DNA of 64,000 nt. Source: Escherichia coli (GTDB taxonomy: Bacteria; Pseudomonadota; Gammaproteobacteria; Enterobacterales; Enterobacteriaceae). Positions 5,666 through 47,100 of this stretch are shown here, one piece after another. Both the position numbers and the translations under genes were made by a program. The notes under the pieces are model-generated. The model saw only the letters and a program-made list of their open reading frames with translations. It made no database searches and was not told where the DNA came from. Within the stretch, counting starts at the first letter, position 1, and each line of letters starts with the position of its first letter. The stretch lies in assembly GCF_022846255.1 (NCBI RefSeq), contig NZ_AP025682.1; one strand, given 5' to 3'.

Positions 5666-6489
5666 TGTACTTCTCCATGCCAGGGCGTCAGGCGGCGCTG
5701 TAACGCGCGCAGACCCAGTTCTAAAAGAAAGGCGATAATCGCAATCACCGCGATCCCCGCCAGCACCACGTCAGTCGCGAGAAATTCACCCGCTGACTGA
5801 ACCATAAATCCTAAACCGCGCGTTGCGGCAATCAGCTCCGCCGCCACCAGCGTAGACCAGCCCACACCCAGACCAATGCGTAATCCGGTGAGGATTTCCG
5901 GCAGCGCGCCGGGCAAAATGACAAACCACAGCACCTGCGCACGGCTGGCACCCAGCGACTGGGCGGCACGAATGCGAACCTGCTGCGCGCTTTTCACCCC
6001 CGCCAGCGCCGACATCGCCACCGGCGCAAAAATCGCTAGATAGATCAGTAAGATCTTCGAGGTTTCGCCAATACCAAACCAGATCACCATCAGCGGCAAA
6101 TAAGCCAGCGGCGGCACCGGACGATAAAGCTCGATTATCGGATCCAGAATGCCGCGCACCGTCGGGCTTAGCCCCATGGCGATCCCGACCGGAATACCGA
6201 TCAACACCGCCGCAAGTAGCGCCAGCAAAATGCGCGTCAGGCTGGCTGCCAGATGCTGCCACAGCGTGGCGTCCATAAATCCCTGCGGCCCGGCAATGGT
6301 GAGCAGTTTTGCCAGTACCTGTTGCGGTGGCGGCAAAAACAGCGGGCTAATCAGTTGCAGCGCCGCGACTGCCCACCATACAGTGAGCAAAACCGCTAAC
6401 GTACCAATGCTTAAGGTCACCTGACGCGAGAGCGGCCAGCGCCATTTCAGCCGATGCGAATGCAGTTTTTCATTAATGAGCACACTCAT
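5662..6489 (-). CDS. tauC: taurine ABC transporter permease
   Basis: 275 aa membrane protein; 4-nt overlap with tauD start. Confidence 0.95.
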
Positions 6490-35474: not shown

Positions 35475-35517
35475 AAGGCTAAACCCAATATTCGGTTTCT
35501 TAACTTTGCGGTGCGCT

Positions 35518-37104
35518 ATGGCACATCCACCACGGCTGAATGACGACAAACCGGTTATCTGGACGGTATCTGTAACGCGGCTGTTCGAGTTATTTCGCGA
35601 TATCAGCCTCGAGTTTGATCACCTGGCGAATATCACCCCTATCCAGCTTGGCTTTGAAAAAGCGGTGACCTACATCCGCAAGAAACTGGCAAACGAACGC
35701 TGCGACGCCATCATCGCTGCTGGCTCTAACGGCGCATATCTTAAAAGCCGCCTGTCAGTGCCAGTTATTTTGATTAAACCGAGCGGCTACGATGTGTTAC
35801 AGGCACTGGCAAAAGCCGGAAAACTCACCTCTTCTATCGGCGTTGTCACCTATCAGGAAACCATTCCAGCGCTGGTGGCGTTTCAAAAGACCTTTAATTT
35901 GCGCCTCGACCAACGTAGTTACATCACCGAAGAAGACGCCCGCGGGCAAATCAATGAGTTGAAAGCCAACGGCACCGAAGCGGTGGTCGGCGCGGGGCTG
36001 ATTACCGATCTGGCAGAAGAAGCCGGAATGACCGGAATTTTTATCTATTCCGCCGCCACCGTGCGCCAGGCGTTCAGCGATGCGCTGGATATGACGCGCA
36101 TGTCTCTACGGCATAACACTCACGATGCCACCCGCAACGCCCTGCGTACTCGTTACGTGCTGGGCGATATGCTCGGTCAATCACCACAGATGGAACAGGT
36201 GCGGCAGACTATTTTGCTGTATGCCCGCTCCAGTGCGGCGGTGTTGATTGAGGGGGAAACGGGGACGGGCAAAGAGCTGGCGGCCCAGGCGATTCATCGG
36301 GAATATTTTGCCCGCCACGATGCGCGACAGGGCAAAAAGTCACATCCGTTTGTTGCCGTCAACTGCGGGGCGATTGCCGAATCGCTGCTGGAAGCAGAGC
36401 TGTTTGGCTATGAGGAAGGGGCGTTCACCGGCTCGCGACGCGGAGGTCGCGCCGGGCTGTTCGAAATTGCCCACGGCGGTACGCTGTTTCTGGATGAGAT
36501 TGGCGAAATGCCGCTACCTTTGCAGACTCGCCTGTTACGGGTGCTGGAAGAAAAAGAGGTCACCCGCGTCGGCGGGCATCAGCCTGTTCCGGTGGATGTG
36601 CGGGTCATTAGCGCCACTCACTGCAATCTGGAAGAAGATATGCAGCAAGGGCAGTTTCGCCGTGACCTGTTTTATCGGCTGAGTATTTTACGCCTGCAAC
36701 TGCCGCCGCTACGCGAGCGGGTGGCGGATATTCTGCCGCTGGCGGAAAGCTTTTTGAAAGTGTCTCTGGCGGCGCTCTCCGCCCCGTTTTCTGCCGCATT
36801 ACGCCAGGGGTTACAGGCAAGTGAAACTGTGCTGCTGCGCTACGACTGGCCGGGCAATATTCGAGAACTGCGCAATATGATGGAGCGACTGGCGCTGTTT
36901 TTAAGTGTGGAACCGACGCCGGATTTAACGCCGCAATTTTTGCAGCTGCTACTGCCGGAACTGGCACGCAAGTCGGCGAAGACTCCCATTCCAGGCTTGC
37001 TGACAGCACAACAGGCACTGGAGAAATTTAATGGCGATAAGACAGCAGCGGCGAATTATTTAGGTATCAGCCGAACGACGTTCTGGCGGCGGCTGAAAAG
37101 CTGA
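35518..37104 (+). CDS. prpR: sigma-54-dependent activator of propionate catabolism
   Basis: 528 aa from ATG 35518 ([15 protein letters not shown]...); AAA+ GETGTGKE and GAFTGS motifs; C-terminal HTH. Confidence 0.95.
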
Positions 37105-37204: not shown

Positions 37205-37480
37205 TTACTTCTTCTTATAAATATTTGCCGTGCCGTGGATCTTATTGTCAGTTTGACCAGAGGTCAGTACCAACACATCAGCCCCTTTTTCATCGGCTTT
37301 TTTGATCAAATCTTCTTTCGCATCTGCGGTCGACATTTCATTACTGGTTGAAATATCACCTATTTTTTCATATTGCGATGCAACCTTTTCAAATTCCGCT
37401 TTGGTCATTAATTCTGCGGCATAGACATTGGTAACGGCAAACGCTAACGCACCGACTAACATTTTAGAGATTATTTTCAT
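37205..37480 (-). CDS. yahO: small periplasmic protein YahO (DUF1471)
   Basis: 91 aa with signal peptide [21 protein letters not shown]. Confidence 0.85.
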
Positions 37481-37626: not shown

Positions 37627-38301
37627 ATGATGAAGTTACTTCACTTATTTATGGATGAAATCACTATGGATCCTTTGCACGCCGTTTACCTGACCGTAGG
37701 ATTGTTCGTGATTACTTTTTTTAATCCGGGAGCCAATCTCTTTGTGGTAGTACAAACCAGCCTGGCTTCCGGTCGACGCGCAGGGGTGTTGACCGGGCTG
37801 GGCGTGGCGCTGGGCGATGCATTTTATTCCGGGTTGGGTTTGTTTGGTCTTGCAACGCTAATTACGCAGTGTGAGGAGATTTTTTCGCTTATCAGAATCG
37901 TCGGCGGTGCTTATCTTTTATGGTTTGCGTGGTGTAGTAGCATGCGCCGCCACTCAACACCGCAAATGAGCACACTACAACAACCGATTAGCGCCCCCTG
38001 GTATGTCTTTTTCCGCCGTGGATTAATTACCGATCTCTCTAACCCGCAAACCGTTTTATTTTTTATCAGTATTTTCTCAGTAACATTACATGCCGAAACA
38101 CCAACATGGGCACGATTAATGGCCTGGGCGGGGATTGTGCTCGCATCAATTATCTGGCGAGTCTTTCTTAGTCAGGCGTTTTCTTTGCCCGCAGTGCGTC
38201 GTGCTTATGGGCGTATGCAACGCGTTGCCAGTTGGGTTATTGGTGCAATTATTGGTGTATTCGCGCTACGCCTGATTTACGAAGGGGTGACGCAGCGGTG
38301 A
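37627..38301 (+). CDS. yahN: LysE/RhtB-family amino acid exporter
   Basis: about 223 aa membrane protein. Confidence 0.85.
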   Translation: MMKLLHLFMDEITMDPLHAVYLTVGLFVITFFNPGANLFVVVQTSLASGRRAGVLTGLGVALGDAFYSGLGLFGLATLITQCEEIFSLIRIVGGAYLLWFAWCSSMRRHSTPQMSTLQQPISAPWYVFFRRGLITDLSNPQTVLFFISIFSVTLHAETPTWARLMAWAGIVLASIIWRVFLSQAFSLPAVRRAYGRMQRVASWVIGAIIGVFALRLIYEGVTQR

Positions 38302-38317
38302 GCAGATAATTTACTCT

Positions 38318-38560
38318 CTACGTAATCAACCTGATTTGCCGAATCCCAACCATCGGCGATGATAGCCCCCGTAATGCGTGGTCCTTATTTCCGATAAGTT
38401 TACTTGAGTCTTTAGCTTCCCATTTCAGCCCACTCTCCCCTGTGTGGGCTTTTTTCATTGTTCTGACCCGTCCTGAATAGCCAAACAATGGCAATGTTCC
38501 ACTTTGCAGGGATGATAATAAGGGGATCTGATTCAGAAAAGTTTTGAAAAGTTGGACCGC
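38318..38560 (-). CDS. yahM: small uncharacterised protein, YahM-like
   Basis: Convergent with yahN; 81 aa from the internal ATG (MAVQLFKTFLNQ...). Identity from memory, start uncertain. Confidence 0.45.
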   Translation of the reverse strand, partial: AVQLFKTFLNQIPLLSSLQSGTLPLFGYSGRVRTMKKAHTGESGLKWEAKDSSKLIGNKDHALRGLSSPMVGIRQIRLIT

Positions 38561-39184
38561 CATCGAGGCCTCGAACCCCGTACCATACAACAATCCTGGT
38601 TGTCGTCTGCTCTTCCTGATGAGCTAATGGCGGTTTTTGATATGAGCCTTACAACATATTTTCTGTCAGGCTTGAGTGCGATGCGTAAGATACAGAAAAG
38701 ACCCCACACAAACATGATGGAATTATGATTTTTTTCATATGAATGTCAACCCACACATTCACAAAACATCTGTATGAGAACATTTTTTATACACCATATA
38801 GCTGCGAAACCACTACTGGTGCTTTTTTAAGCGAAACTCCGCCGTTCACAACAAAATATCGGCGAAAAAGGAGGGGGAATGCCATTTGGCATACAGATAC
38901 ACAGATGAAATGATGACCTGCTTTGCGATTCACTCTCTGGTGGAATAACAACTTGCAGGTGGCTCTCTTAAATAAAAATAAACGTCGCAGATAATAAAGC
39001 TCTGATTAAACCATACACTATCAGAAATCGCTCATAACTAACGTGTAAAGTAGTGGAGTTAATTTAACAATCTGAATTTACGCTATAGGTTTACCACTAC
39101 TTTGATATTATTTCGCTCTCCTTAACTAAAAAGTTAAGTGGAGCGAAGTTAATATGTTAAACCACAGGATGTTTATTAATTTTT

Positions 39185-40234
39185 TCAGTCTGTTAGTGTG
39201 CGATTATCGATAACAAAACGATATTTCACATCACCACGCAGCATTCGCTCATAGGCTTCATTAATTTGATCGGCCCGAATCATCTCTATATCAGCCACGA
39301 TGCCATGTTCGGCGCAAAAATCGAGCATCTCCTGAGTTTCTGGAATGCCGCCAATCATAGAACCAGCTATCGCGCGGCGTTTCATGATCAGGTTGAAAAC
39401 TTCCGGGGATTTATGCGGTGTCGCAGGCGCACCAACCAGCGTTATGGTGCCATCGCGCTTCAGCAAGGTGGTAAAATCGTCGAGATTATGTGGCGCAGCT
39501 ACTGTATTCAAAATGAAATCGAAACTCTTCACATGAGCCGCCATCTCATCGGCATTGCGTGAGTTAACAACTTCATCGGCCCCCAGGGCTTTTGCCGCTT
39601 CGCGTTTTGACTCAGAAGTGGTAAATGCCACCACATGCGCCCCCATCGCGTGGGCCAGTTTAATCCCCATATGTCCCAGACCGCCGATGCCGACCACGCC
39701 CACTTTTTTACCCGGCCCGGCCTGCCAGTGGCGTAGCGGCGAGTACGTGGTGATTCCTGCACACAATAAAGGAGCCACCGCCGCCAGCTGCTCTTGCGGG
39801 TGACGAATACGCAGAACATATCGCTCATGAACGACGATCTGTTGTGAGTAGCCGCCCAGAGTATGGCCCGGTTCATCCGGTGTCGGCGAGTTATAGGTTC
39901 CGGTCATGTGATCACAGTAGTTTTCCAGCCCATCTTCACACTCTTCGCAATGTTTACAACTGTCGACAATGCAGCCGACACCAACCAGATCGCCCGGCGC
40001 ATGTTTTTCTACCTGATCACCAACGGCTACCACGCGCCCCACAATTTCATGACCCGGCACGCAGGGGTAAACCGTCCCCGCCCACTCCGAACGGACCTGG
40101 TGGAGATCGGAATGGCAGACGCCACAGTAAGCGATTTCGATTTTGACATCATGCGGTCCCGGTTCACGCCGGGTGATATCCATCGGTTCAAGGGGTTGTT
40201 TAGCGGAATATGCACCAACAGCTTTGATCTTCAT
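39185..40234 (-). CDS. yahK: NADPH-dependent aldehyde reductase (zinc alcohol dehydrogenase family)
   Basis: 349 aa; CGVCHSDLH and GHEIVG zinc-ADH motifs. Confidence 0.93.
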   Translation of the reverse strand: MKIKAVGAYSAKQPLEPMDITRREPGPHDVKIEIAYCGVCHSDLHQVRSEWAGTVYPCVPGHEIVGRVVAVGDQVEKHAPGDLVGVGCIVDSCKHCEECEDGLENYCDHMTGTYNSPTPDEPGHTLGGYSQQIVVHERYVLRIRHPQEQLAAVAPLLCAGITTYSPLRHWQAGPGKKVGVVGIGGLGHMGIKLAHAMGAHVVAFTTSESKREAAKALGADEVVNSRNADEMAAHVKSFDFILNTVAAPHNLDDFTTLLKRDGTITLVGAPATPHKSPEVFNLIMKRRAIAGSMIGGIPETQEMLDFCAEHGIVADIEMIRADQINEAYERMLRGDVKYRFVIDNRTLTD

Positions 40235-40320: not shown

Positions 40321-41277
40321 TTAAACCACCCGATCCAGCCCCAACATGCCGCGAGCCTGAATGAAACAGAGCAGCAACGTTCCCCATAAGGCCATCGTCA
40401 GGTAGGGGCTTATACCGAGAATATTGAAGCCGCTTTCAATAATTTGCAGAAGAAACAGCGCCAGCACCATACCAATTATCCGCCCGCTGCCGCCGTCCGG
40501 ATTAACCCCGCCGAGTACTGCCGCGAGGATTGACACCAGCAAGTACGATTCGCCATAAGAGGCCTTAGCCGAGTTGAGTTTCGACATCATCAAAAATGCC
40601 GCTACCGCACAAAGCAAGGCGGAAATGACATACACCCATATCAGCACCCGACGAGTGTTAATACCGGAGTAAAGTGTTGCTCGTTCGTTAGAACCAATCA
40701 GATAAATGGCTTTACCGAGCGGCGTTTTCTCCAGCAATATCCACAGCCCCAGCGCCACTGCGGTAAACAACCACATCGGTAGCGGAATACCGAACCACTG
40801 TGCATGATTCAACCACAGCACCCATGAGGGATAATTGGCAATGGCGCTACCGCCTGTCACCAGAATATTTACCCCTTTGAGCAACGTCATCATCCCAAGC
40901 GTTGCAAGAATTGGCGACACTCGAATACCAGCAATCAATACGCCGTTACATAAACCGATTATCACCGCCGCGCCAGCGCCTGCCAGTAACGTAGCGACAA
41001 CCGTAGCAATACCCGGTGGATACTGAGTCGCCACCCACGCCATCACCAGTGAACAGGCGTTAGCAGTGGCTATAATTGACAAGTTAATGCCACCGCAAAG
41101 CATGGTCACCGCCATAGCCAACGCCAGAATGCCCAGCACGGGCATTTGCGAAGCGACGGACTGGAAATTACTTATCGACCAGAAAATCTCCGGCATAGTA
41201 ATGCTGAAGGCGGCAACAGTTAGCACCAGCAGGCCGATCAAGTAAAACTCAACGTTATTACGCCACGATTTTTTCAT
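40321..41277 (-). CDS. sugar ABC transporter permease (RbsC/LsrD-like)
   Basis: Polytopic membrane protein; ATG at 41277 overlaps the stop of the upstream permease as ATGA. Confidence 0.8.
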   Translation of the reverse strand: MKKSWRNNVEFYLIGLLVLTVAAFSITMPEIFWSISNFQSVASQMPVLGILALAMAVTMLCGGINLSIIATANACSLVMAWVATQYPPGIATVVATLLAGAGAAVIIGLCNGVLIAGIRVSPILATLGMMTLLKGVNILVTGGSAIANYPSWVLWLNHAQWFGIPLPMWLFTAVALGLWILLEKTPLGKAIYLIGSNERATLYSGINTRRVLIWVYVISALLCAVAAFLMMSKLNSAKASYGESYLLVSILAAVLGGVNPDGGSGRIIGMVLALFLLQIIESGFNILGISPYLTMALWGTLLLCFIQARGMLGLDRVV

Positions 41278-42245
41278 AGCAGACTCCGGTTCTGATGCTG
41301 ACTCCACGCCGTGGCGCTAATGCTGGCAACGATGATGATGCCAGTGATCAATGTTTGCCAGTAAGACGAGACTCCCAATAAATTTAGCCCGTTTTGCATC
41401 ACTGCCAACAACACCACGCCGAGCAAAGTACCGGTTAACGTGCCGCGCCCGCCGAGCAAACTAGTGCCGCCAAGCACCACCGCAGCCAGTACTGTCAGCT
41501 CATAACCCAGAAGAGAATCGGGGGCGACAGTCATCACCGTCCACGACTGCACTACACCCGCAGCACCAGACATCAATCCCATATAGCCATAGACGAAAAG
41601 TTGCAGTTTCAGCACACTAAAGCCGATGCGACTGGCTGATTCGCGGTTCCCGCCAAGGGCATAAATTTTGCGCCCTACACTGGTGAAATTCATGATAAAC
41701 GCTGTTAGCAGCACCACCGTAATCATGGCGATCAGCGGTAGACCAAGGCCATAGTCATAGCCATCAGCATCGGTGTACTTGAACAACATAACCCCCTGCT
41801 CAAACCACGGCGGAAAGTCGTACAGCCACACACCTTTACTCAACCATAACAGCAGGCCATAGAAAATATTCAGCGTCGAGATAGTGATGATGATAGAAGG
41901 CACCCGTAGGCGATTAACCAGTAAGGCGTTAATTAAGCCAAGTAAAATGCCGATGCCGCCCGCCAGTGCAAACGCGACAGCAAAGTTACCACCCATTTTT
42001 TGCAGCAACAGCACCATGCCGTATTGCGCAATGATGGTCATTGCTGGAAACGAAATATCAATTCCACCGGAAATCAACACCACAAACAAACCACAGGCGA
42101 GAATAGTCAACATGGCATAGTTATTGGCGAGATCGTACAAATTACCGAATGTCAGAAACTCGTCGCTGCGCCAGGCAAGGCCGACAAACAGCCCCACAAT
42201 CAGTAATGCCAGCCAGAATTCATGACGTTTTTTCAGTTCAGCCAT
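41274..42245 (-). CDS. sugar ABC transporter permease (RbsC/LsrC-like)
   Basis: 323 aa polytopic membrane protein; start overlaps the ATPase 3' end by 8 nt. Confidence 0.8.
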   Translation of the reverse strand: MAELKKRHEFWLALLIVGLFVGLAWRSDEFLTFGNLYDLANNYAMLTILACGLFVVLISGGIDISFPAMTIIAQYGMVLLLQKMGGNFAVAFALAGGIGILLGLINALLVNRLRVPSIIITISTLNIFYGLLLWLSKGVWLYDFPPWFEQGVMLFKYTDADGYDYGLGLPLIAMITVVLLTAFIMNFTSVGRKIYALGGNRESASRIGFSVLKLQLFVYGYMGLMSGAAGVVQSWTVMTVAPDSLLGYELTVLAAVVLGGTSLLGGRGTLTGTLLGVVLLAVMQNGLNLLGVSSYWQTLITGIIIVASISATAWSQHQNRSLL

Positions 42246-43722
42246 TTACCACCTCCGCAATCCTGGCCTGAGAACTGCTGTCAGGCAGGAAGCTATGGGT
42301 GATCTGACCTTTTTGCATTACCAAAATCCGGTGGCTTTGATACCACGCTTCTTCAATTTCATCGCAGATCATCAATACCGCAATGCCATGAGCCGCCAGA
42401 TCGCTGATAATGCCGTATATTCCTGCTTTGTTGGCGATATCAACACCGACTGTCGGGCTATCGAGAATCAACAGTCGTGGCCCAATCGCCAGCCATTTGG
42501 CGATCGATACTCGCTGCGCGTTACCACCAGAAAGCGTATTCACCGGGAGATGTGGGTCAGAGACTTTGATGGTCAATGCCTTGATTAGCCTGTCCACCAG
42601 GTCACGCACTTTAGCTTCACTCAGAAAGCCGAAGCGATCTTTTACCTTGTGAAAAACAGTGCTAATGATGTTGTCTTCAATAGATTGCGCCATCACCAAA
42701 CCGCGCGACATGCGATCTTCCGAAACATAACCAATACCGTGGCGGATGGCGTCCTGGTTACTATGCAGTGTAACCGGCTGACCGTTGATGAGGATCTCGC
42801 CAGCATCCGGTCGGGTCATACCAAACAGACTCAGACATAATTCCGTGCGCCCCGCACCAAGCAGGCCAATAATCGACACCACTTCGCCCGCTTCCACCCG
42901 CAAGTTAATATTTTGATATTCCCCATGACGACTTAAATTACGCACCTCCAGCACTGGGATGCTGGATTTTCCCTGCCACAACTCTCGTACCTGATATTCA
43001 AACTCCTGGCCGGTCATCAGGAAACCGAGTTGTTTTGTGGTCATCTCTGCAGCCGGAAAGGTCCCGACCAGCTCACCATCTTTCAGCACTGAAATACGGT
43101 CGGAAACTTCCATCACCTCTTCCAGACGATGACTGACGAAGACCACGCAGATCCCGCGTTCCCGCAATTGATGCACCACCTGTAATAACCCTTGCACTTC
43201 CTGATGGGTCAGCGAAGCGGTTGGTTCATCCATCACAATCAACCGTGCGTCCTGCGCCAGTGCACGGCAAATTGCCACCAGCTGACAGCGGGCAATTGAA
43301 AGCTCAGAAACGAGCGTATCCAGTGGCAATGTGACGTTAACACTGGTCATTGCCGCCTGCGCCACCTCACGCAGACGACGTCGGTTAACAAACAGACCGT
43401 GGTGATAGTGATTCACGGCGATATTCTCCCAGACACTCAGGTTAGGAAATAAAGAGAGGTCCTGATAAATCACCTGAATCCCCTGCGCCACCGAAGCGGC
43501 GGGTGTCAGCTTTGACCAGTTTTTCCCACCAAGCGTAATTTCCGCTCCCTCATCCGGGCGATAAACACCGGACATAATTTTAATCAACGTCGATTTACCA
43601 CAGCCGTTTTGCCCGGCAAGGCAGTGCACTTCACCCGACATAAAGTCGAGAGAAACATCGCGCAGCGCTCGCGTGGCATGAAACGTTTTGTTGATATGAC
43701 GAAGGGAAAGGAAGGTTTCCAT
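42238..43722 (-). CDS. sugar ABC transporter ATP-binding protein with two fused ABC domains (RbsA/LsrA-like)
   Basis: From ATG 43722 (METFLSLRHINKTF...), preceded by AGGGGA; Walker A GQNGCGKST, second domain GLLGAGRTEL, signature LSGGNAQR. Confidence 0.85.
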   Translation of the reverse strand: METFLSLRHINKTFHATRALRDVSLDFMSGEVHCLAGQNGCGKSTLIKIMSGVYRPDEGAEITLGGKNWSKLTPAASVAQGIQVIYQDLSLFPNLSVWENIAVNHYHHGLFVNRRRLREVAQAAMTSVNVTLPLDTLVSELSIARCQLVAICRALAQDARLIVMDEPTASLTHQEVQGLLQVVHQLRERGICVVFVSHRLEEVMEVSDRISVLKDGELVGTFPAAEMTTKQLGFLMTGQEFEYQVRELWQGKSSIPVLEVRNLSRHGEYQNINLRVEAGEVVSIIGLLGAGRTELCLSLFGMTRPDAGEILINGQPVTLHSNQDAIRHGIGYVSEDRMSRGLVMAQSIEDNIISTVFHKVKDRFGFLSEAKVRDLVDRLIKALTIKVSDPHLPVNTLSGGNAQRVSIAKWLAIGPRLLILDSPTVGVDIANKAGIYGIISDLAAHGIAVLMICDEIEEAWYQSHRILVMQKGQITHSFLPDSSSQARIAEVVNG

Positions 43723-43770
43723 AACATCCCCTGGCAATAAGAATCGGGGCTTTCGCCCCGAAGAAATGGA

Positions 43771-44757
43771 TTAATAAAGTGAGTCGATATTGTCTTTGTT
43801 GACCAGTAATACCTTATGGAAACGGATAATTCGCTTATCCATATCTACGTCGGCCTTCCCCAGATTCTGCATTTCTAATCCAGGTTTGATCTCTTCACCC
43901 TTCAGCAACGTGCTGGCGACGGCTGCGAGTGCGTAACCTGCAGAGGCCGGATCGTAAGTAATCCCTTCGGTGATATCACCACTTTTAATCAGTGATGCCG
44001 CCTGTGAAGGAATCATCATGCCATAGACTGCGACTTTATTTTTCGCCCGTTTCTCTTTCACTGCACGTCCCGCGCCAATCGGACCGTTTGAACCAAAGGA
44101 GACAACCGCTTTCAAGTCAGGATAGGTTTTCATCAGGTCCAGTGTGGTACGACGTGAGTCATCCACACTCTCGGCAACCGGCATGCGGCGGGTAACTTCA
44201 TGCATATCCGGGTAATGCTCTTTCTGGTATTTCACCAGCAAGTCAGCCCATAAGTTATGCTGCGGCACGGTCAAACTACCCACGTAAATCACATAGCCGC
44301 CCTTGCCACCCATGCGTTTCGCCATATGTTCAACATATTCAGCGGCAAATTTTTCGTTATCAATGATTTCGATATCCCAGTTAGCACTTAGCTGACCGGG
44401 GGATTCGTTGGTCAGAACCACAATTCCGGCATCTCGCGCTTTTTTGAATACCGGTTCCAGCACGTTGGCATCGTTTGGCACAATTGTAATTGCATTAACC
44501 TTACGGGCGATTAAATCCTCAATAATTTTAACTTGTTGCGGAGCATCAGTACTTGAAGGCCCCACCTGTGACGCATTAACACCAAAGGCTTTACCCGCCT
44601 CAACCACACCTTCGCCCATGCGATTAAACCACGGCATACCATCGACTTTAGAGATATTCACCACGACTTTTTCCGCTGCCTGGAGCGGCGCAGAAATTAG
44701 CGCAGCGCCTAATAACAGCGAAGACACCATATTGATAACAAAACGTTTATTCATCAT
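43771..44757 (-). CDS. periplasmic sugar-binding protein, LsrB/RbsB-like
   Basis: 328 aa with signal peptide MMNKRFVINMVSSLLLGAALISAPLQA; N- and C-terminal blocks resemble LsrB (...NKDNID...). Confidence 0.8.
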   Translation of the reverse strand: MMNKRFVINMVSSLLLGAALISAPLQAAEKVVVNISKVDGMPWFNRMGEGVVEAGKAFGVNASQVGPSSTDAPQQVKIIEDLIARKVNAITIVPNDANVLEPVFKKARDAGIVVLTNESPGQLSANWDIEIIDNEKFAAEYVEHMAKRMGGKGGYVIYVGSLTVPQHNLWADLLVKYQKEHYPDMHEVTRRMPVAESVDDSRRTTLDLMKTYPDLKAVVSFGSNGPIGAGRAVKEKRAKNKVAVYGMMIPSQAASLIKSGDITEGITYDPASAGYALAAVASTLLKGEEIKPGLEMQNLGKADVDMDKRIIRFHKVLLVNKDNIDSLY

Positions 44758-45717: not shown

Positions 45718-47100
45718 TCAACCTGCCACGCTCCCCCACACCAGTTGCCCTTTATGGAACGTTGCGGTTCTCGGCGAGATACGCGCCACCGCCTCGGCGG
45801 AACAGGAGGCGTCCACCAGCACAAAGCTGGCGTCATCCTGCGCTTTAGGCCACACGCGCTCGCCTTTTTCGTTGAGCGGCAATACATCGCCAGTGGCTAA
45901 AAACAGCGAGCGGGAGAGGTTCTGTTCGTTAGGACGAATATAGAGCTGCGCGTACAGATTGGCTTTTTCCAGCATGTCGCCCAGGCCGTAAGGCGACCAG
46001 TGGTCGATAACGCTGTCGGTGCCGGTCATCACTTTTACGCCTTTGTCGTGCAACTGTTTGAGCGGCATATGCAGCGTGCCAATCGGTACCGTCGAGGCGA
46101 TAGAAATTTGCTGCGCCGCCATCCGGTGCGCCAGTTCATCTACCTGTTGTTCGTTGAGCGTTGCCAGCGCGAAGGCGTGGCTGATGGTCAGCTTGCCCTT
46201 CAGCTGTGGCGTTTTCTCTACCGTTTCAACCATATAATTGATGGCTGCCACGCCTGCCGGAGTGGTTTCGTGCAGGTGAATATCGACGCCTTTGTCGTAG
46301 TCCAGCGCAATCTGGAACATGGTGTCGAGGGATTTTTCCATCGCGCCATCGACACTGGTCGGGTCCAGCCCGCCGACGTAATGCGCGCCCGCCTGCATTG
46401 CTTCACGCATTAAAGGTTCCGATTTCGACAGCAGCAAACCGTGCTGCGGGAAGGCGACAATTTCACACTCGAAGCCCGCCTGACGTCGCGCCAGCACCGA
46501 CTGCAAATTTTGCAGATTTTTCAGGCCGGAAACCGGTTCGATATTGCAGTGGCTGCGGGCAATGGTGGTGCCTTTTGACTGCAATAAATCGATCAGTTTT
46601 TCCGCCCGTTCCTGAGTATATGGTTGCAGCTCCGGCAGCATTTTCTGCTCGAGTTTGATCATGTCCTGGATAGTGGTGCCTGCCGGACGATTGAGCGAGC
46701 GCCACGGCCCGCCGTAGAAGGTTTTATCGAGATGAATATGCATGTCGCGGGTGGTGGGCAGCATCAGCTTACCGCCAGCGTCATAGTGCGGCAGCGTGGC
46801 GTCCGGATGCTGCTTGTTCTCGCGCAGGGCAACAATTTTACCGTCCTGAATCTCCACGGTCTGGCGCGCCGTGCGGGTCTGTACCGCCACGCCATTTTCG
46901 TAGTCAAAACCGGTTTCCAGCAGCACGTTATCGAGATAGTAATGCGGGTCAGTGATTTTCATGGTGTTGTTCGCTTCGCAGTTTAGGGTGCCAGCTACCC
47001 CCGCATGGGCGAGCGGCACTGAGGGACCAAACAGCGCGGCGGCGGTAACCATCTTACCGCTCTGGCTCAGAAATTCACGGCGGCTATTGTTTTCTTTCAT
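45718..47100 (-). CDS. yahJ: Tat-exported metal-dependent amidohydrolase/deaminase
   Basis: 460 aa; twin-arginine signal SRREFLSQSGKMVTAAALFGPSVPLAHA; HIH metal site. Confidence 0.9.
   Translation of the reverse strand: MKENNSRREFLSQSGKMVTAAALFGPSVPLAHAGVAGTLNCEANNTMKITDPHYYLDNVLLETGFDYENGVAVQTRTARQTVEIQDGKIVALRENKQHPDATLPHYDAGGKLMLPTTRDMHIHLDKTFYGGPWRSLNRPAGTTIQDMIKLEQKMLPELQPYTQERAEKLIDLLQSKGTTIARSHCNIEPVSGLKNLQNLQSVLARRQAGFECEIVAFPQHGLLLSKSEPLMREAMQAGAHYVGGLDPTSVDGAMEKSLDTMFQIALDYDKGVDIHLHETTPAGVAAINYMVETVEKTPQLKGKLTISHAFALATLNEQQVDELAHRMAAQQISIASTVPIGTLHMPLKQLHDKGVKVMTGTDSVIDHWSPYGLGDMLEKANLYAQLYIRPNEQNLSRSLFLATGDVLPLNEKGERVWPKAQDDASFVLVDASCSAEAVARISPRTATFHKGQLVWGSVAG

Follow-up and report, generated by a model that had tools for sequence, protein, structure and literature searches.

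The 621-bp gap between yahM and yahK in the Escherichia coli sequence analysed here is the scar of a single, ancient and clean deletion of 835 bp that removed yahL, and it is not a decayed gene. The deletion lies on the branch to a large E. coli clade that includes phylogroup B2 reference strains. In our full account, yahL was cleanly deleted, a hairpin in the gap is the 3' stem-loop of yahK and a nearby inverted repeat is neutral; we put the probability of this account at about 0.8. The locus is then ordinary, combining the clade-wide clean loss of an orphan gene with known elements, namely the stem-loop at the 3' end of the yahK mRNA and the xtpA unit.

The window, i.e. the whole stretch of 64,000 nucleotides that was analysed, is in reverse orientation relative to K-12. 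Alignment with K-12 by blastn gave two collinear pieces, 38200–38962 at 96.3% and 38963–39300 at 92.9%, and exactly 835 bp (K-12 344170–345004) is missing between them. The missing segment starts 6 nt ahead of the yahL ATG, directly after the yahL Shine-Dalgarno sequence, which has stayed behind in the window, and ends 13 nt beyond the stop codon. Over its whole length, the gap can be aligned to the intergenic DNA found on either side of yahL in K-12. One part is the former yahL–xtpA spacer, and the other, 38963–39184, is the former yahK–yahL intergenic region, where both the hairpin and the inverted repeat lie, together with invariant blocks and the Shine-Dalgarno sequence left without its gene (Table 1). 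No microhomology, direct repeat, target duplication, IS trace or mobile-element feature was found at the ends of the deletion.

Layout of the locus

The original prediction, made from the window sequence alone, placed the gap between yahM and yahK and noted that K-12 has a 271-aa yahL at the same place. Both statements are borne out; the order in the window is yahN, yahM, gap, yahK, and the K-12 order is yahK, yahL (271 aa), xtpA, yahM, yahN. The gap, whose limits are the yahM start at 38563 and the yahK stop at 39185, is AT-rich as described, with a GC content of 38% compared with approximately 50% in the flanking genes. The further claim that it holds no ORF of 60 aa or more is wrong, because a 60-aa ORF on the minus strand begins inside the gap and is the orthologue of xtpA. 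The absence of yahL therefore stands, but the gap does have content: its yahM-proximal third is occupied by xtpA and the embedded tRNA-like sequence, both of which had been overlooked.

Table 1. Features of the prpR–yahK region, in window coordinates
Feature	Position	Strand	Basis or remark
prpR	35506–37104	+	Gene order in the window
yahO	37205–37480	-	Gene order in the window
yahN	37627–38301	+	Gene order in the window
yahM, 81 aa, left edge of gap	38318–38563	-	75/81 aa identical to K-12 YahM; annotated yahM in near-identical genomes
xtpA orthologue, 60-aa ORF overlapping the yahM start	38533–38715	-	59/60 aa identical to K-12 XtpA b4845
tRNA-like sequence within xtpA	38553–38633	-	ARAGORN call tRNA-Ser(gga)
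Former yahL–xtpA spacer	38716–38962	-	K-12 345005–345251, collinear, approximately 92% identical
xtpA promoter-like site, TTGACA, 16-nt spacer, CATAAT	38722–38749	-	11/12 consensus positions
Deletion junction GCAGGTGG/CTCTCTTAAAT	38962–38963		blastn breakpoints
Orphaned yahL Shine-Dalgarno sequence AAGAGAG	38963–38969	-	6 nt upstream of the yahL ATG in K-12
Invariant block TTATGAGCGATTTCTGATAGT, former yahL upstream region	39017–39037	-	Identical in the five-sequence alignment (the window, strain 104, K-12, L008 and the cryptic-clade L006)
Inverted repeat IR1, AAAGTAGTGG/CCACTACTTT, perfect 10 bp, 37-nt spacer	39047–39056, 39094–39103		Inverted-repeat search
Equivalents of K-12 RNA 3' ends 344013 and 344011	39107–39109	-	Mapped from PMC7815308
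Hairpin 2, stem-loop in the yahK 3' UTR, core 39114–39145	39105–39155	-	Starts 39 nt past the yahK stop
yahK, 349 aa, NADPH-dependent aldehyde reductase, right edge of gap	39185–40234	-	ORF, annotation, homologues

In K-12, the xtpA mRNA is reported to be leaderless and to have a tRNA-like sequence within it, and the title of that report names an effect on GcvB (Muto et al. 2022, J Biochem 171:459, as cited in PMC10767902). In the window, the -10 element of the promoter-like site ends 7 nt before the ATG at 38715, and the same site is present in K-12. This short distance fits a leaderless transcript of xtpA, the expression of which is predicted here. In the window, K-12 and L006 the tRNA-like sequence is the same. 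It is 85% identical to a stretch between ileZ and argO of the Stx2e phage phiP27, and a plasmid homologue of it is annotated as 'tRNA-OTHER'. As a functional tRNA gene it is not supported, since ARAGORN alone calls a tRNA and Rfam gave no tRNA match at E ≤ 10 for 38553–38633. The orthologous ORF, the embedded tRNA-like sequence and the promoter adjacent to the ATG together identify 38533–38715 as xtpA.

Two other candidate readings of the gap were rejected. It does not behave as a repeat or mobile element, having a median of one copy per genome; among the matches listed, the sole one away from the chromosomal locus was on a plasmid and covered the tRNA-like sequence only. A 54-codon ORF with a TTG start (38787–38951, minus strand) lies 3' of the orphaned Shine-Dalgarno sequence, and every E. 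coli lineage examined keeps it open. We do not accept it as a gene, since the window and K-12 disagree at 12 of its 54 residues; at approximately 92% DNA identity this means that nearly all of the changes are non-synonymous.

The 3' end of yahK and the inverted repeat

Both structures that the original prediction had marked in the gap are present at the positions given, i.e. a hairpin with arms at 39114–39127 and 39132–39145 and two mismatches, and a 10-bp inverted repeat with a 37-nt spacer (39047–39103), referred to here as IR1. The hairpin is stronger than first described, with 16-nt arms and an outer AU stem. It folds at -20.6 kcal/mol on the minus strand (z = -7.5) and at -22.3 kcal/mol on the plus strand, and its K-12 counterpart folds at -22.9 kcal/mol. 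The two structures modestly exceed chance. Among dinucleotide shuffles of the gap, 1.3% contained a hairpin with 14-nt arms and at most two mismatches, and 2.7% contained a perfect inverted repeat of at least 10 bp. The observation that neither structure is followed by a U-run, and that they are thus not classic intrinsic terminators, also holds. A U tract is absent on both strands, and a scan of both strands found no terminator-like site.

The hairpin sequence is invariant in all sampled E. coli alleles that carry yahL, apart from single variants, and within E. coli its core, CTTAACT-N4-AGTTAAG, is kept as a perfect 7-4-7 palindrome. The ancestral hairpin has a 16-nt 5' arm with a 2-nt bulge. 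In the window-type hairpin TC has been lost from this arm, and in another sub-lineage with the empty site CA has been lost from it, which leaves a perfect 14-bp stem of -28.3 kcal/mol. L008 has one compensatory change from U-A to C-G. The cryptic-clade hairpin contains three G-U wobbles and folds at -19.0 kcal/mol in the yahK-sense RNA and at -10.1 kcal/mol in the antisense. K-12, L008 and L006 all retain the hairpin, with 94.8% of cells paired. The covariation amounts to the one compensatory pair, and 137–230 of 500 shuffles do as well. The structure is conserved, but covariation by itself is no proof of this, and simple sequence conservation could explain its persistence.

Experimental RNA 3' ends lie directly behind this hairpin in K-12. 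Term-seq placed 3' ends at 344013 (+) and 344011 (+), and the sequence context printed for them is that of the hairpin (Adams et al. 2021, PMC7815308, supplementary files 1 and 3). The hairpin core corresponds to K-12 343973–344006, and the 3' ends fall 5–7 nt after the stem. Their read counts are modest (745–1132), and they are classed as 'orphan', without assignment to yahK (PMC7815308). The same study lists a region of Rho-dependent termination at 344049 (+), with a Rho score of 3.6 and p = 1.8e-5 (supplementary file 2), 36–38 nt downstream of these 3' ends. Rho-dependent transcripts of E. coli end just after stable stem-loops that lack a U tract, and such stem-loops protect against PNPase and RNase II (Dar & Sorek 2018, PMC6061677). 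The hairpin is best read as a U-less stem-loop that ends or protects the yahK mRNA. Transcription on the minus strand would most likely run past the hairpin and be stopped by Rho, and 3'-to-5' exonucleases would trim the yahK mRNA back to the stem-loop. Trimming of this kind would explain the absence of a U-run. The 'orphan' K-12 3' ends 344011 and 344013 now gain an assignment, to a conserved hairpin of the yahK 3' UTR. By extension from K-12, the same 3' ends would be expected to form in this strain, and termination here would likewise be expected to depend on Rho. An 11-nt deletion in this lineage took part of a C-rich patch downstream of the hairpin (C/G 0.88 here compared with 1.18 in K-12), and Rho loading may differ in this lineage.

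A close alternative to Rho-dependent termination followed by trimming is that the hairpin acts as a weak, non-canonical intrinsic terminator and that the 3' ends at +5 to +7 are true points of termination. The stability of the stem matches that of intrinsic terminators, the 3' ends are at a distance of 5–7 nt from it, and possible mixed or transitional cases have been noted by Dar & Sorek (PMC6061677). However, the tail AAAUAAUAUC contains no U tract, the scan gave no terminator-like site, and a significant Rho region follows 36–38 nt downstream in K-12. We regard intrinsic termination as unlikely, although it deserves to be kept in mind.

The suggestion that the structures form a regulatory RNA is correct in that the hairpin is a genuine RNA structure, but this structure reads as the 3' end of yahK, and IR1 is not conserved. 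A wider form of the suggestion, in which the hairpin, with or without IR1, serves as a cis-regulatory RNA, a small RNA or a palindromic DNA operator, e.g. a transcription-factor site in the former yahL promoter region, is quite improbable. The perfect palindrome of the conserved core, the invariant blocks nearby and the nearly equal folding of both strands in E. coli alleles would suit such a role. A covariance-model scan against Rfam, however, found no known family, with best E-values of 0.2–4 and all scores far below the gathering scores. The best score, 20.3 bits against a threshold of 50, belonged to the yahN terminator, and the matches over the hairpin (MIR6274) and IR1 (c-di-GMP-I-UAU) reached 17–18 bits against thresholds of 65–80. 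The cryptic-clade allele keeps the structure on the yahK-sense RNA only, by means of its G-U pairs, which would be needless for a DNA operator. The RNA 3' ends directly behind the hairpin and the lack of conservation of IR1 also argue against this role. Our data favor the hairpin as the stem-loop at the 3' end of the yahK mRNA.

IR1 has a different history. Its fold on the minus strand is modest (-14.5 kcal/mol, z = -3.0), and in the alignment it is absent from K-12, L008 and L006. Relative to all alleles with yahL, it was created by the 11-nt deletion and a few substitutions. Its 5' arm occurs in 19 of 19 alleles with the empty site and in 0 of 115 alleles with yahL, which dates it to the branch on which yahL was deleted. 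The IR1 arms carry four substitutions, each of which improves pairing, somewhat more than neutrality predicts. Quasipalindrome template-switch mutation is a 'correction' of imperfect palindromes by replication slippage, and templated mutation of this kind or selection is possible as the source of the bias. IR1 is probably without conserved function, and we infer that it is neutral.

A more consequential reading of the same changes is that the deletion and IR1 together rewired the locus in B2-type E. coli, where xtpA/yahM is now at a distance of 247 bp from the former upstream region of yahL, or from read-through of yahK. IR1, in place of part of the C-rich patch, would be an RNA element particular to this lineage and would determine the amount of transcription that arrives at xtpA. 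If true, this would alter XtpA-dependent control of the small RNA GcvB in extraintestinal pathogenic lineages. We consider rewiring a long shot.

Direction and spread of the yahL loss

We conclude that the common ancestor had yahL and that the gene was deleted on the branch to the clade of the window, and not gained in K-12. Outgroup lineages were reached through divergent YahL variants (87% and 79% aa identity) and the contigs that carry them. These contigs share the order ABC transporter, yahK, yahL, xtpA/yahM region, yahN, yahO, prpR, and the xtpA/yahM stretch in them was confirmed by blastn. The nucleotide identity of yahK to K-12 is 96.1% in L008 and 88.9% in L005–L007, and the latter value is at the level expected of a separate cryptic-clade lineage, judging from sequence. 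Between K-12 and L006, dS is 0.665 for yahL and 0.623 for yahK, and dN/dS is 0.17–0.20 for yahL compared with 0.02–0.04 for yahK. The match in dS and the dN/dS of yahL indicate that yahL was inherited vertically, diverged with its neighbours and was under purifying selection. Other routes to an outgroup gave less. When contigs were scanned with a wobble-degenerate pattern taken from the 3' end of yahK, one contig was recovered, from an E. coli-like MAG with yahL, and no outgroup species. YahK homologues at 86–91% identity were in unrelated genomic contexts or other genera.

A neighbour-joining tree of yahK and xtpA/yahM/yahN was built from 79 haplotypes and rooted with the 89% lineage. In this tree L008 branches first, followed by several lineages with yahL, and the empty alleles are nested among alleles that carry the gene. 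Twelve of the 14 empty alleles form one clade; the other two fall outside it, and recombination or noise in the tree is needed to account for them. The retention of yahL in position in divergent lineages and the nesting of the empty alleles among those with yahL point to loss and not gain.

The reverse order of events, in which the ancestor had the empty site and yahL came in by a later insertion in the lineage of K-12 and most other E. coli, would agree with the character of the gene itself. yahL is an AT-rich orphan restricted to Escherichia. No family in Pfam, PHROG, NCBIfam or PADLOC matched YahL at the curated cut-off or with a convincing E-value (best 0.0018), tblastn gave no phage homologue, and an exhaustive search of 1.84 billion cluster representatives returned only fragments of YahL and a single distant homologue cluster. 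This homologue is a rare E. coli protein with 24–26% identity; it was also considered as a relative of the neighbouring DUF2686 protein and is unrelated to it. The AlphaFold2 model of YahL had a mean pLDDT of 46 and was unusable. The indel is also almost exactly the size of the gene, and it is free of microhomology. However, lineages outside the empty clade have yahL at the same place, among them the one with yahK 88.9% identical to K-12, the dS of yahL equals that of its neighbours, and the ends carry no repeats, target duplication or mobile-element features. An insertion is thus very improbable.

The idea in the original prediction that the gap is the remnant of a decayed gene, i.e. a frameshifted or otherwise degenerate yahL pseudogene, can practically be dismissed: yahL does decay independently elsewhere, through an IS1 insertion, a replacement by ISApl1/IS5 in strain SEV4 and truncated forms, but tblastn with YahL found no recognisable frameshifted yahL in the gap (best E = 0.97), blastn with the yahL segment found no match in the whole window, and the gap is accounted for in full by the K-12 intergenic flanks.

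The clean deletion of yahL is widespread. The flanks are present in 5176 of 5426 complete E. coli genomes, yahL was matched in 4076 of them, leaving approximately a quarter without a match, and a 100-mer across the junction was found at full length in 1072 (19.8%). Carriers of the exact junction include UM146 and clone D i2, and CFT073 has the same layout of yahK, 621-bp gap and yahM. We take these three to be phylogroup B2 reference strains. Loci retrieved from metagenomes with the invariant 21-mer TTATGAGCGATTTCTGATAGT as the pattern comprised 115 with yahL and 19 with the same empty junction. The junction and the length of the segment were identical in all 17 empty alleles measured, 16 of which came from metagenomes. 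This uniformity suggests that the deletion occurred as a single event.

Implications and comparison with known systems

In a published qPCR scheme, yahL serves as a signature gene for E. coli/Shigella; genes of this class are defined there as unique to all strains of a taxon (PMC11057252). The primers and probe of the yahL assay lie entirely inside the deleted segment. The assay is therefore blind to approximately a fifth to a quarter of sequenced strains and under-counts the lineages concerned. The junction sequence, on the other hand, provides a simple single-event marker for the clade.

The absence of yahL resembles the lineage-specific loss of accessory and orphan genes in the E. coli pangenome in that a single non-essential gene is polymorphic for presence, its absence is fixed in one large clade and independent disruptions are seen elsewhere. 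Unlike typical losses of this kind, the deletion is unusually tidy, removing approximately one exact ORF with ends that show no IS, repeat or microhomology.

The hairpin shares with the protective 3' stem-loops of Dar & Sorek (PMC6061677) its stability, the lack of a U tract, K-12 3' ends a few nt after the stem and, in K-12, a bicyclomycin-sensitive termination region just downstream. It differs from that class in that it has had no individual description, its 3' ends being listed as 'orphan', and in that the C-rich patch downstream is partly deleted here. With a canonical intrinsic terminator it has in common a stem-loop of comparable energy after a stop codon, but it has no U-rich tail on either strand and the upper half of its stem is fairly AU-rich.

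The sequence changes in this region recall quasipalindrome mutation. In sub-lineages, the 16-nt 5' arm of the hairpin has been shortened to the length of its partner by either of two distinct 2-nt deletions, and each of the clustered changes behind IR1 makes pairing better. Unlike in quasipalindrome mutation, the IR1 changes are on both arms, so a single template switch would not be sufficient. The xtpA unit compares directly with that of K-12. The ORF is identical at 59 of 60 residues, the tRNA-like sequence is unchanged and the promoter is the same, whereas xtpA is here 247 bp from the yahL upstream region compared with approximately 1.1 kb in K-12.

Polymorphic genes and the yahL interior

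The ABC transporter operon is a second presence/absence polymorphism, directly adjoining that of yahL. It lies beside yahK not only in the window but also in strain N3 and the divergent outgroup loci L005-L008; K-12 and CFT073 lack it. Its presence or absence shows no linkage to the yahL state. Genomic SELEX found strong binding of RNA polymerase holoenzyme within K-12 yahL (old coordinate 343660), with values inside the gene of 27.1 for RpoF, 17.8 for RpoE and 5.6 for RpoH (PMC5493296). The lineage of the window is without this bound DNA. The sole distant homologue of YahL is P0147, a rare E. coli protein whose neighbouring genes code for a DUF2686 (YjfZ-family) protein, a gp25-like protein and a large invasin-like adhesin.

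Features of the region
Feature	Location	Strand	Remarks
tRNA-like sequence inside xtpA	window 38553-38633; L006 ~6280-6370	(-) in the window	
Further loci matching the tRNA-like sequence	L139 1501-1582; L003 3001-3081		
yahN intrinsic terminator	window 38427-38456	(+)	antisense within yahM coding sequence; GCCCAC, 10-nt loop, GTGGGC, then TTTTTT
54-codon ORF	window 38787-38951	(-)	TTG start; 11 nt downstream of orphaned yahL Shine-Dalgarno
yahM, strain 104 and CFT073	L002 2517-2761; L138 30053-30296		annotated frameshifted
ABC transporter operon	window 40321-44757	(-)	four genes, between yahK and yahJ
yahJ	window 45718-47100		
P0147 (YahL homologue)	L140 6001-6828		275 aa, 24-26% identity

yahM, yahN and the 54-codon reading frame

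The intrinsic terminator of yahN is a good one, and it accounts for a weak Rfam match to 'Betaproteobacteria toxic sRNA'. Both the window and UM146 have an intact yahM. The frameshift annotations in strain 104 and CFT073 indicate that decay of yahM may be under way in part of the deletion clade, the genomes that share the yahL deletion junction. Downstream of the orphaned Shine-Dalgarno sequence, the 54-codon TTG frame is open across all E. coli lineages checked, and the stretch carries a 'hypothetical protein' annotation in some RefSeq genomes. The substitutions in the frame are mostly non-synonymous, so it is unlikely to be a gene.

Termination and the tRNA-like sequence in xtpA

The transcript of yahM and xtpA, the 60-aa leaderless gene overlapping the yahM start, appears to be prematurely terminated. 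K-12 data of Adams et al. 2021 (PMC7815308) point to this. In all three growth conditions a Term-seq 3' end falls within the tRNA-like sequence (K-12 345390 (+), about window 38577 (-)), a strong Rho termination region with a score of 6.2 lies within yahM (K-12 345585 (+), about window 38382 (-)), and their 'yahM 5' UTR + ORF' reporter begins at the xtpA ATG. Across the window, K-12 and L006, a cryptic-clade locus, the tRNA-like sequence has 0 substitutions despite 10-13% divergence of the adjoining genes (dS ~0.6), which implies that it is under very strong constraint. The tRNA-like sequence shares 85% identity with the ileZ-argO interval that precedes stx2e in phage phiP27, and an E. coli plasmid 'tRNA-OTHER' also matches it at 85% identity; the anticodon arm is not the same. 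These matches suggest that the xtpA element originated in a lambdoid-phage tRNA cluster.
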